From the IMG/VR virus record IMGVR_UViG_3300044614_001780: a stretch of 64,000 nucleotides of DNA; one strand, 5' to 3'. The position numbers and the translations under genes were made by a program. The stretch is from a virus. Position 1 is the first letter of the stretch; each line of letters opens with the position of its first letter. Shown piece by piece: positions 59,524 to 61,292 of the stretch. The notes under the pieces are model-generated. The model worked only from the letters and a program-made list of their open reading frames with translations, ran no database searches and was not told the DNA's origin.

Positions 59524-60213
59524 TTATTCTATAATAATTGAGGGGGCATCTGAGCATTCTGGGCAATTTTCACGAGTCCACCCAAGTGCTTCGGATACTG
59601 CAGGAAACTGACATGTAAAAATACACTTAACAGCATTTGCAATATCCATGTGTTCTTTTTGGGTGCCATGCCCAGAACGCAAATCAATATAATGGATCCA
59701 TGACCTTACCGAACCCGTCATATAGAGTCTTGTAGGAGTTGCTAGGGGCAATACAAACCTTGCACACTCCTTTGCAATTCCAGCATCAAGCATTTGTTGA
59801 TACAGATCCATTGAATGTTTAAAATGGTCCTGCATCAAAATTTGAAACTTTTGAACAATAAATGGATCAACATCATCAATACTGTTTTGACGATTTTTGT
59901 CGTCTTGACGACGAAGTTCTGGCACAGGAATAGAATTCCCAAGCAAAGAACTATCAGCATATCTTTGTGAAAATTCTTGATATGTAAATGAACGGTGGCG
60001 CAAAATTTGAGCTGCTATACCTCTTGTGGTATTAATCTCAACAGTCATTGAAGCTTGTTCAAAGATACTCCAATGCTGATGTTGAATACAGTATTTAAGG
60101 AGTCCAGAAAACTTTTCATTTTCTTGGTTTGCTGGATTTGAAACACGAGCACAGTATGCCATGTGCTTCTCTGCATCTGGTGTTACTGAAATAAGTTTAA
60201 CAAGTTGTGTCAT
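59524..60213 (-). CDS. thyX: Flavin-dependent thymidylate synthase
   Basis: HWSIFEQ...[17 protein letters not shown]...ARFVLP; likely start MTQLVKL. Confidence 0.96.
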
Positions 60214-60214
60214 A

Positions 60215-60397
60215 TTAGTCTGGGTATCCATCATCATCTTCAAAAATTTCGTCGTAATCATGTAAACTTCTTGATTGTTTTTCAATTAAGTTTACGTTTT
60301 CTGTATAAGAATTTACATCAGAATAAACTTCTACCTTTAATGAGTCAACCAAAAGTTCTAAGTTTCTAATAATTAATTTTAATTTATCTTTGTCCAT
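60215..60397 (-). CDS. Hypothetical cyanophage protein
   Basis: [27 protein letters not shown]. Confidence 0.7.
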
Positions 60398-60417
60398 TTG
60401 GATAAATTCTTTCTATC

Positions 60418-60453
60418 ATTTTACATAAAAAAGGGGGGAAAGTCAATCCCCCC
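60418..60453 (-). terminator. Intrinsic terminator overlapping a sigma70-like promoter
   Basis: GGGGGGA-TTGACT-TTCCCCCC-TTTTTT; TTGACT-17-TAAAAT. Confidence 0.75.
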
Positions 60454-60459
60454 AGAGCA

Positions 60460-60561
60460 TCAAACAACTTGTGGTTGCTTTGCCATATTCAGTTGTGCAT
60501 TGTGAAGGAGTTGTTCCTTCTTTGCTTTTTTCTTAAGATAACGAACGAAGTAAGTATTCAT
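60460..60561 (-). CDS. Small basic peptide (33 aa) coupled to the DUF4278 gene
   Basis: MNTYFVRYLKKKAKKEQLLHNAQLNMAKQPQVV; AAGGAGG RBS, ATGA overlap. Confidence 0.7.
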   Translation of the reverse strand: MNTYFVRYLKKKAKKEQLLHNAQLNMAKQPQVV

Positions 60562-60695
60562 TTGTGCCCCTCCTTTACAAATTTAACACCACGATAGGTT
60601 TCGTTGTATTGTTGAGGTTGTTGCATCATCTGTTGTTGATATTCTAAACGCTTTTGCGTATCATATTCAACACCACGGTATACGACTTTAGACAT
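60558..60695 (-). CDS. DUF4278-family peptide (45 aa, IF17 N-terminus-like, Gln-rich)
   Basis: MSKVVYRGVEYDTQKRLEYQQQMMQQPQQYNETYRGVKFVKEGHK; two YRGV motifs; AAGGAG RBS. Confidence 0.85.
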   Translation of the reverse strand: MSKVVYRGVEYDTQKRLEYQQQMMQQPQQYNETYRGVKFVKEGHK

Positions 60696-60726
60696 TAGGG
60701 TTCTCCTTAGTTTTTAAGTTAAAGAG

Positions 60727-60768
60727 CGTTCCTTCAGTCGGCTTTTGCGTCCTCTAAGAGGATGAACG
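60727..60768 (-). ncRNA. Glutamine riboswitch aptamer 2 (glnA-type)
   Basis: CGTTCA-TCCTC-TTA-GAGGA-CGCAAAAG-CCGA-CT-GAAGGAACG: P1 CGTTC/GAACG, P2 and short P3. Confidence 0.8.
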
Positions 60769-60771
60769 TTC

Positions 60772-61025
60772 CGTTCCGAGTCGGCTTACTTCCGTCCTAT
60801 TGAATTGTTTAGCACTTAAGTTTCACAACATCCTTTCGGAGTTCTAATAGCAATCGGTCTTCTTTTCTCTGGTCTACTACATCGTCGTTTTTAACGATGT
60901 CCATTAGTTCCCACGCTGCGTCACAACTTATTGTCACTTGATTAGATATAGCAAATTGTGTCGTAGAAATAAAAAGAAGTGGAACCCATGCTAAAAGCAA
61001 AAGTGCTTTAGTCATAGGATGAACG
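60772..61025 (-). ncRNA. Glutamine riboswitch aptamer 1 (glnA-type), P2 loop interrupted by an ORF
   Basis: 5' half CGTTCATCCTAT (61025-61014); 3' half ATAGGA-CGGAAGTAAG-CCGA-CT-CGGAACG (60800-60772). Confidence 0.7.
60809..61015 (-). CDS. Small two-Cys protein with hydrophobic N-terminus, embedded in the riboswitch
   Basis: 68 aa; ungapped similarity to 16954..17127. Confidence 0.7.
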   Translation of the reverse strand: MTKALLLLAWVPLLFISTTQFAISNQVTISCDAAWELMDIVKNDDVVDQRKEDRLLLELRKDVVKLKC

Positions 61026-61072
61026 TTAGGGGATTATTTTACCCCTAGTTACCATATATATCCAAACACTTT

Positions 61073-61088
61073 TGTAAAATATGATACA
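61073..61088. promoter_or_regulatory. NtcA-consensus box
   Basis: TGTA-AAATATGA-TACA with TTT/AAA flanks, upstream of the riboswitch. Confidence 0.55.
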
Positions 61089-61103
61089 AAATTTAATTTT
61101 GTA

Positions 61104-61292
61104 TCAATCGAGTTCCTTTTCCTTTTTATCCATTTGCATTACTTCATACAAAGGAGTTTTTTGGAATTTTTTAATTTTCTTATAATCTTTTATTACTTTT
61201 TTTAATTCTGATTCATTCAATTGAACGTTTAACTGATGTTCAAATTCTTTTTTAAGTTCTTTTCTAAGAACATCTTCAAATTTTTCTTTCAT
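61104..61292 (-). CDS. Hypothetical protein
   Basis: ATGA-coupled charged ORF. Confidence 0.55.
   Translation of the reverse strand: MKEKFEDVLRKELKKEFEHQLNVQLNESELKKVIKDYKKIKKFQKTPLYEVMQMDKKEKELD

Follow-up and report, generated by a model that had tools for sequence, protein, structure and literature searches.

In Synechocystis sp. PCC 6803, the glutamine synthetase (GS) inactivating factors IF7 and IF17 are encoded by gifA and gifB, whose promoters are repressed by NtcA, and the gifB leader contains a type 1 glutamine riboswitch (PMC6212724, PMC6316151). According to the model for this leader, bound glutamine melts a helix that masks the ribosome-binding site (PMC6212724). The GS-binding part of IF17 is an IF7-like C-terminal module with three conserved arginines, and its DUF4278 part is dispensable for GS inactivation and said to promote stability (PMC6316151). 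Picocyanobacterial loci of the yfr6/PMM1846 type combine an NtcA motif, a Glutamine-II (RF01704) riboswitch and a short open reading frame (ORF) with a YRG motif (Weinberg 2010; Klaehn 2018). Here, we analyze a cassette carried by a T4-like cyanophage, in which two microprotein genes follow tandem glutamine aptamers, on the minus strand of IMG/VR record IMGVR_UViG_3300044614_001780, a stretch of 64,000 nucleotides referred to below as the window.

In the literature, glnA RNA is annotated in T4-like cyanophages such as S-CREM1 (PMC9964418), NtcA sites are predicted in cyanomyoviruses (Sullivan 2010, PMC3037559), and in NC_006882.1 a YRG ORF behind a Downstream-peptide RNA has as its neighbor a gene with the annotation of phage capsid protein (PMC2864571). 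Word searches of these texts found no "riboswitch" in Sullivan 2010, no "NtcA" in the S-CREM1 paper and no "phage" in Klaehn 2018. Within the searchable literature, we found no account that joins an NtcA motif, a glutamine riboswitch and a DUF4278 gene for phages.

Architecture of the cassette

We read the cassette as a self-contained phage operon for two microproteins, in which parts borrowed from the cyanobacterial host probably make expression depend on nitrogen status during infection. Its architecture is solid (Table 1): a promoter region with a GTA-N8-TAC palindrome is followed by two type 1 glutamine aptamers, the first of them a split candidate that encloses an ORF, then by a 45-amino-acid (aa) gene with two YRG motifs, an overlapping 33-aa gene, and a G+C-rich stem-loop with a T run, as in an intrinsic terminator, 3' of the last gene. 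The junction sequence of the tandem aptamers was recovered from 43 phage records and from at least 120 viral contigs of IMG/VR, and most features recur in more than 100 related phage contigs, so that the cassette is not the product of chance. Counts given below refer to 106 non-redundant phage loci for the spacing of the box and to 124 loci for the inserts in the aptamers. Nitrogen regulation of the cassette, judged from these elements, is plausible.

An earlier annotation made from the letters alone (hereafter the original prediction) had described the unit as a nitrogen-sensing cassette resembling gifB control. All of the elements that it listed are found on the minus strand, namely the box, 13 nt before TATATA and 17 nt before TATGGT, the 45-aa peptide with two YRGV motifs and eight Gln, including the run QQQMMQQPQQ, the 33-aa basic peptide, whose ATGA overlap with the stop codon of the 45-aa gene is consistent with translational coupling, and the terminator behind it. 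The tandem aptamers need one amendment: aptamer 2 passes RF01739, and the candidate aptamer 1 lies in two halves around a 68-aa ORF. The likeness to gifB-type control also stands, with a glutamine riboswitch before a DUF4278-type gene and a promoter bearing an NtcA motif, and the gifB background on which it drew agrees with both published accounts (PMC6212724, PMC6316151).

Metatranscriptome contigs from three studies are identical to parts of 60392..61002. They show presence in RNA libraries, whereas start, end, strand and level are not readable from them. The end that they share at 61002 was given no weight, and we take them as a weak hint that the unit is naturally transcribed.

Table 1. 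Elements of the cassette in the window, listed in the direction of transcription
Feature	Position	Strand	Basis or remark
Upstream 62-aa ORF	stop at 61104	-	the box sits in the 78-nt gap between the end of this ORF and the aptamer start at 61025
NtcA-type palindrome TGTATCATATTTTACA (GTA-N8-TAC)	61088..61073; GTA-N8-TAC core 61087..61074	-	motif match
TTGGA-TATATA-TGGT, conserved TTGAC-TATATA promoter element	61065..61051	-	motif information content; unique in the window
TATATA, candidate -10	61060..61055	-	13 nt after the box
TATGGT, alternative candidate -10, overlapping TATATA	61056..61051	-	17 nt after the box
Hairpin AGGGG-TAAAATAAT-CCCCT	61046..61028	-	directly 5' of aptamer 1
TAAAAT in the hairpin loop, candidate -10	61041..61036	-	17 nt after TGGATA
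Aptamer 1, 5' half CGTTCATCCTAT: P1 strand CGTTC and hairpin strand TCCTAT	61025..61014	-	identical to the half in locus L070
CGTTCATCCTATG	beginning at 61025	-	its ATG starts the nested 68-aa ORF; overlaps the 5' half of aptamer 1
Nested 68-aa ORF in the hairpin loop of aptamer 1	61015..60809	-	translation
Aptamer 1, 3' half ATAGGACGGAAGTAAGCCGACTCGGAACG	60800..60772	-	identical to the half in locus L070
Aptamer 2, type 1 glutamine riboswitch (glnA RNA)	60770..60723	-	RF01739, 39.2 bits
Expression platform, CUCUUUA / Shine-Dalgarno UAAGGAG	60726..60720 / 60709..60703	-	minimum-free-energy fold
45-aa double-YRG microprotein, DUF4278-like	60695..60558	-	translation, profile matches
33-aa basic helical microprotein	60561..60460	-	ATGA overlap with the stop of the 45-aa gene
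Intrinsic terminator GGGGGG-ATTGACTTT-CCCCCC with T run	60453..60427	-	7 pairs, 6 of them G-C, then TTTTTT

The phage that carries the cassette is freshwater or estuarine. Its nearest database relatives, Synechococcus phages S-SRM01 (75% identity) and DSL-LC02 (87% over part), are both Kyanoviridae from fresh water. Among the neighboring genes is a ThyX-like thymidylate synthase ORF (60285..59524). Three tRNA genes lie at 982-1263 on the minus strand (Leu-TAA, Ile-TAT and Met-CAT), and none for tRNA-Gln was found in the window.

Relatives of the 45-aa peptide

The 45-aa peptide (MSKVVYRGVEYDTQKRLEYQQQMMQQPQQYNETYRGVKFVKEGHK, with the ends MSKVVYRGVEYDT...TYRGVKFVKEGHK) contains the motifs YRGVEY and YRGVKF, matches phrog_5049 with an E of 1e-10 and is found with exactly the same sequence on 514 contigs. 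Y-R-G..Y and a second R-G do not vary among 25 aligned, diverse phage homologues, and 24 of the 25 match PF14105 (DUF4278) at E<=0.01, the best at 5e-7. Comparison of the family by hhalign with six cyanobacterial IF17-type proteins, taken from loci behind cyanobacterial glnA aptamers, gave 96.4% and an E of 1.4e-9 over IF17 residues 2-60; one of the six (L126) scores 77.5 bits on PF14105. By these profile comparisons, the 45-aa peptide is related to the N-terminal DUF4278 moiety of IF17. A word-index search for longer relatives returned only over-called ORFs reading through the riboswitch and did not find IF17, none of the three small ORFs of the cassette matched NCBIfam, and a search of solved structures, with the fused 48-aa S-CREM1 peptide as sole query, gave only a chance match to spectrin (E 0.68).

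The original prediction had also suggested that the Gln run might add a translational nitrogen sensor. The Gln-rich linker, however, marks one subfamily: at least six Gln lie between the YRG motifs in 31 of 92 distinct peptides and fewer than three in 50 of them, and thus a translational Gln sensor is not a feature of the family.

The YRG motif has led to another possible target. Weinberg et al. 2010 note the YRG motif of downstream peptides together with the YRGxxY of PII (PMC2864571), and their Additional file 1 gives this PII-conserved YRGxxY for 355 of 429 downstream peptides. A phage peptide with YRGVEY and YRGVKF, from a family whose invariant columns are Y-R-G..Y, might accordingly mimic the T-loop of PII, or target PII, PipX or NAGK rather than GS, and so rewire nitrogen signaling. 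The resemblance comes down to a five-residue motif, and we consider this explanation very improbable.

In six loci (L004, which is P-SSM4, and L051, L083, L087, L090 and L113), the YRG gene is followed not by the basic helix but by a hydrophobic peptide of about 28 aa (e.g. MLVVSEILLASVVFLGIIYAETQLLYNYK), which looks like a single membrane span.

The second peptide and its host relatives

The family of the 33-aa peptide (MNTYFVRYLKKKAKKEQLLHNAQLNMAKQPQVV) has the pattern (M)NxLxxI(K/R)xxxxKExRLHxAQLxMA. A -1 overlap joins its gene to the preceding YRG gene in 50 loci. The two modules also occur as natural fusions, with the helix behind the YRG motif in S-CREM1 and L108 and in front of it in L053, P0064, P0095 and phrog_545, and P0100 is a further fused relative; in L047, L096 and L113 the helix is the first ORF.

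We searched cyanobacterial genomes with the 33-aa profile at E<=0.001. Across the phylum, 4 of 401 genomes matched, all of them small, and in the picocyanobacterial family of one of these matches 36 genomes out of 201 had a match. We fetched 23 host loci: 20 have an Rfam-significant RF01704 (Glutamine-II, Downstream-peptide) aptamer directly upstream on the same strand, 22 have GTA-N8-TAC 86-130 nt before the start codon, and in 11 the helix is fused to two YRG motifs, as in MNVLELIRKKIIKDRRLDDAQFLMAKAYRGVPYVDAHHDDP...LTYRGQRYEH. The YRG part of these host proteins again matches DUF4278. Host and phage helices align over their full length, with N2, K15 and A22 invariant. From these alignments, the 33-aa peptide is a relative of picocyanobacterial peptides encoded behind Glutamine-II riboswitches. 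Since the host relatives stand behind RF01704 and half of them are fused to YRG, the two phage genes correspond to two modules of a riboswitch-controlled host microprotein, and the phage pair is, as far as sequence comparison goes, a split host helix+YRG downstream peptide with the modules in the opposite order, and not a split IF17.

The latter had been proposed by the original prediction, in which the two peptides jointly bind and inactivate host GS, the YRG peptide as N-terminus and the basic peptide as IF7-like C-terminus. Part of this proposal stands. The two peptides are halves of one kind of protein, as the fusions in both orders indicate, and the 45-aa half is indeed related to the N-terminal part of IF17. 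The 33-aa peptide is basic and helical like the IF7 core, the best local hhalign match (LLHNAQLNM against KQHNRQQSM) falls at the right place, the control logic parallels gifB and gifA, and truncated IF17-like proteins co-evolving with picocyanobacterial GS were left open in the literature (PMC6212724, PMC6316151).

The GS-binding function, by contrast, found no counterpart in the second peptide. The IF7-type module has the pattern AR.LM...R.K..NRQQSML.R, and hhalign gave the 33-aa family 0.5% against IF7-like proteins and 0.2% against IF17, or 0.3% after the host helix sequences were added. The three arginines essential to IF7 (PMC6316151) are invariant in an alignment of 12 IF7-like proteins encoded behind cyanobacterial glnA aptamers, whereas the window peptide has no arginine at the positions corresponding to two of them. 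When 1.84 billion representatives were searched exhaustively with HMMER, 67 relatives emerged at E<0.001; almost all of them are 27-43 aa long, and none has the length or type of IF7 or IF17. The moiety that the 45-aa peptide does share is the one dispensable for IF17 action, and factor-mediated control of GS has been excluded earlier for marine picocyanobacteria (PMC6316151). The profile comparison with DUF4278, IF7 and IF17 that the original prediction had put forward as a check is divided in its outcome, the YRG family matching DUF4278 and the IF17 N-terminus and the 33-aa peptide showing no detectable similarity to the IF7 module. An IF7-type module in the 33-aa peptide is not supported by its sequence, and we regard joint inactivation of GS by a split IF17 as quite improbable.

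Tandem glutamine aptamers and expression platform

Aptamer 2 is a member of RF01739, its score exceeding the gathering score of 35. Aptamer 1, whose halves lie about 230 nt apart, is not reported by cmscan. Locus L070 has these halves in one piece, with a 9-nt loop between them, and the aptamer there scores 38.1 bits on RF01739. The closing stem of aptamer 1 varies among loci while staying complementary (CCTAT/ATAGG, CCTTA/TAAGG, CTA/TAG), and the 3' half shares 97.6% identity with P-SSM4 and further cyanophages. Of the 124 loci, 88 have an uninterrupted aptamer 1 and 32 have one with an insert of about 204-230 nt; aptamer 2 is intact in 45 and interrupted in 67.

The nested 68-aa ORF encodes an identical protein on 25 contigs and has no match in Pfam, NCBIfam or PHROG. 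Its product has a hydrophobic N-terminus and two Cys, and its ATG forms part of the closing stem of aptamer 1. P-SSM4 has ORFs inside both aptamers, and S-SRM01 and DSL-LC02 have one, inside aptamer 2. Shortly upstream of the P-SSM4 cassette, we also observe a manA RNA (RF01745, 184 bits; L004:319-504).

Downstream of aptamer 2, CUCUUUA pairs with the Shine-Dalgarno segment UAAGGAG in the minimum-free-energy fold of aptamer and platform, and the same pairing is predicted in leaders of the Synechococcus-phage type. A shuffle test of this pairing was uninformative, as pyrimidine-rich shuffles pair too. By analogy with the gifB leader, translation in the window leader is probably turned on by glutamine.

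Cyanobacterial and other loci with glnA aptamers were gathered with a DNA pattern for these aptamers. In twelve of them (L137, L144, L171, L173, L175, L190, L191, L201, L219, L230, L243 and L244), a glnA aptamer stands directly before a short IF7-like protein without DUF4278, and Crocosphaera watsonii WH 8501 is among the cyanobacteria with this arrangement. Linkage to DUF4278 is thus not a fixed property of the riboswitch. Tandem aptamers of the glnA type are common among marine SAR116, SAR86, Pelagibacteraceae and other proteobacteria (L128, L130, L141, L162, L174, L188 and others). Many alphaproteobacterial copies have a palindrome of the type ATATGCAAAAAATGCATAT upstream, and by a simple rule the proteobacterial aptamers often have no ORF within 120 nt downstream.

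The NtcA-type box and the promoter

A GTA-N8-TAC box, the motif of NtcA-regulated promoters, lies in the promoter region of the cassette, where about 0.01 would be expected in the 78-nt gap from the shuffle rate. Its position upstream of the aptamer is fixed across the 106 loci. When the loci are aligned on the conserved TTGAC-TATATA element, information content in the anchored loci peaks at the GTA and TAC half-sites and the inner eight positions are variable. Changes in one half-site are matched in the other so that the palindrome is kept (TGTAAC..GTTACA, TGTATC..GATACA), as one would expect where a dimeric protein binds.

The window as a whole contains 26 matches to GTA-N8-TAC against 8.9 expected from shuffles, about a threefold excess. 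We rejected this excess as regulatory evidence, most matches being inside coding DNA. Many of the copies share the form GTAnnnATTCCTAC in coding DNA of about 26-39 kb (e.g. 26473, 29266, 38637 and 38949) and look like a repeated coding motif rather than regulator sites. The box at 61087 is the sole one of the 26 with a TATATA 13 nt downstream. The TTGnnTATATA composite was likewise rejected as a general promoter type for this phage, as it occurs once in 64 kb.

The palindrome may in practice not be an NtcA site. The cassette would then have an ordinary phage early promoter, or one served by another factor, and nitrogen would be sensed by the riboswitch alone. A promoter scan did return other candidates, TTTACA-16-TATGGT and TGGATA-17-TAAAAT. 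The former matches the sigma-70 consensus at 9 of 12 positions, with TTTACA taken as a T4-like -35 with A/T-rich upstream DNA. The motif by itself is weak, given the excess in coding DNA, and 22 loci lack the box. Against this, both half-sites are conserved and covary as a palindrome, with information peaks at GTA as well as TAC, beyond the half that could serve as a -35, and the same motif precedes the homologous peptide in 22 of the 23 host loci. We consider this explanation rather unlikely.

The position of the box relative to the transcription start depends on which element serves as -10. About 95 phage loci (L005-L124) have the hairpin before aptamer 1 in this position; its stems vary between them yet stay complementary, and the loop is nearly always TATAAT-like and lies 17-18 nt after TTGAC. 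In five loci without the hairpin, TATATA is found 6-7 nt before CGTTCA, which would put the RNA start at the aptamer. Where the hairpin is present, its first base lies 7-8 nt after TATATA, and it would thus form a 5' stem-loop of the mRNA. The sequence fits both TATATA as -10, with the box centered at about -32.5, and TTGAC(T) as -35 with the hairpin loop as -10, which would center the box at about -50. The hairpin can be read either as the mRNA 5' stem-loop or as a promoter -10, and two overlapping promoters are therefore possible. The records of S-PM2 and P-HM2 contain no promoter annotation, and a literature search gave no transcription start-site data for cyanophages.

Activation by NtcA has a canonical geometry, with the box centered at -41.5, about 22 nt before a TAN3T -10. 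The window, with its 13 nt to TATATA and 17 nt to TATGGT, departs from it, and neither promoter arrangement above places the box at -41.5. In 46 of the 106 loci, the window among them, the box lies 12-14 nt before TATATA, and in at least five, all with the nested ORF of the window, the spacing is about 20-23 nt. NtcA-repressed gifA promoters have their sites at -30.5 in Synechocystis and -28.5 in Anabaena, and that of gifB is at -7.5 (PMC6316151). In a repressing geometry, as at the gifA -30.5 and gifB -7.5 sites, the box overlaps core promoter elements. With TATATA as -10, the window box would fall close to the gifA positions. The cyanobacterial glnA-aptamer loci that were fetched have the box downstream of TTGACA and ahead of the leader, at a distance of 23-33 nt from the aptamer. 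The corresponding distance in the picocyanobacterial Glutamine-II loci is 21-33 nt, and in P-SSM4 the palindrome GTAGCAATTGCTAC directly adjoins the aptamer.

The alternative, following the model of Sullivan 2010, is that NtcA activates the promoter and the phage exploits the nitrogen-stress response, in which case expression would need high 2-oxoglutarate together with high glutamine. That paper predicts 1-16 NtcA sites per cyanomyovirus genome and reads them as promoters (PMC3037559). In the five or more loci just mentioned, 20-22 nt separate the box from TATATA, as is canonical for class II, and the box would lie upstream of the -35 if TTGGAT/TAAAAT were the promoter. However, the window and the 46 loci with 12-14 nt are about 8 bp off the activating register, the host loci of the same peptides place the box near the start of the leader, as in the NtcA-repressed gif promoters, and activation by nitrogen stress opposes activation by glutamine. 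Activation in the window phage is in our view unlikely. Repression by NtcA would be coherent with a glutamine-ON riboswitch, because both signals then report nitrogen sufficiency, and from the spacing it appears more likely than activation for the window phage. The direction of the effect nevertheless depends on the transcription start site.

Five IMG/VR loci with the nested ORF of the window (L019, L065, L081, L103 and L123) have the box 20-22 nt before TATATA and carry additional GATAC/GTATC palindromes upstream.

Proposed mechanism

We propose the following order of events for the operon. Transcription would start from a promoter with a conserved NtcA-type palindrome and would probably be modulated by NtcA, the 2-oxoglutarate sensor of the host, the box in the window phage most likely occluding the promoter under nitrogen scarcity. 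The leader would form two type 1 glutamine aptamers, the first closing around the 68-codon ORF, and CUCUUUA after aptamer 2 could sequester the Shine-Dalgarno sequence. Bound glutamine would free the ribosome-binding site, if the leader behaves like that of Synechocystis gifB. The ribosome would then make the 45-aa double-YRG peptide, and the 33-aa helical peptide would follow via the ATGA overlap. The peptides should hence be made at high glutamine levels and affect the nitrogen metabolism of the host, with no detectable GS-binding module of the IF7 type.

Several observations weigh against this reading. Of the 106 loci, 22 have the TATATA anchor without a box and 26 have no usable TATATA anchor. 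The 13-nt spacing departs from the canonical activating one, a repressing geometry would require TATATA to serve as -10, and the activating spacing of about 20-23 nt does occur in at least five related loci. The anti-Shine-Dalgarno helix lacks covariation support, because it is invariant in loci of the Synechococcus-phage type, and the fold z-score of -0.76 is not significant. With 19.1 bits (E 0.0017) on Pfam DUF4278, the 45-aa peptide by itself falls short of the gathering score of 25.3, and DUF4278-only proteins have no assigned function even in hosts (PMC6212724, PMC6316151). The weakest link would be inhibition of GS by the peptides, which is speculation.

A wider proposal is that cyanomyoviruses commonly use a two-input gate, with 2-oxoglutarate read via NtcA and glutamine via tandem riboswitches, to drive a host-derived YRG+helix effector on GS, PII or a partner of these. 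We hold it as a tentative and doubtful possibility. If it were true, the two peptides together would hold the nitrogen flow of the host in a state that favors phage replication, and the phage pair would reveal the function of the abundant DUF4278/downstream peptides of Prochlorococcus and Synechococcus.

Comparison with known systems

The available text of Weinberg et al. 2010 (PMC2864571) was found to make no mention of the helix module, and no discussion of the phage peptides was found in the available text of the S-CREM1 (PMC9964418) or Sullivan 2010 (PMC3037559) literature. For the second peptide, its host relatives and the two classes of box spacing, we found no prior description in the searchable literature.

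Few regulatory units of marine picocyanobacteria are as numerous as glutamine riboswitches and DUF4278 "IF17-like" peptides, and the role of the peptides is unassigned. Phages retain only genes that pay off during infection. The presence of exactly the same 45-aa sequence on hundreds of contigs points to a strong, transferable effect of the peptides, and the link between the second phage peptide and the host helix+YRG proteins provides a concrete pair that can be tested. The label "GS inactivating factor", tempting for these peptides, is unsupported and should be corrected. With the cassette, nature also provides an example where nitrogen status may be read by a transcription-factor site as well as by a riboswitch.

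Compared with gifB and gifA, the cassette shares the GTA-N8-TAC motif at the promoter, and with gifB it further shares a type 1 (glnA) aptamer in the 5' UTR (untranslated region), a downstream ORF with DUF4278/YRG repeats and a predicted segment after P1 that sequesters the Shine-Dalgarno sequence. Unlike gifB, it is phage-borne and has two aptamers, one of them a candidate that encloses an ORF, and its peptide is 45 aa long instead of 149 aa, lacks the IF7-like GS-binding module and is accompanied by a second, coupled helical peptide. The box of the window lies upstream of TTGAC/TATATA, whereas in the cyanobacterial glnA-aptamer loci it follows TTGACA. With the glnA RNA of S-CREM1 and the NtcA sites of cyanomyoviruses, the cassette has the riboswitch family and the DNA motif in common.

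The nearest cellular relatives of both modules are the yfr6/PMM1846-type loci, which encode the helix MNxLxLIRxxxxKxxRLHxAQLxMAK together with YRG repeats and are likewise small units with a terminator and an NtcA motif (22/23). They differ from the phage loci in having one type 2 aptamer where the phages have tandem type 1 aptamers. In the host the helix comes first and is often fused to YRG, whereas in the phage YRG comes first and the helix is a separate, overlapping gene.

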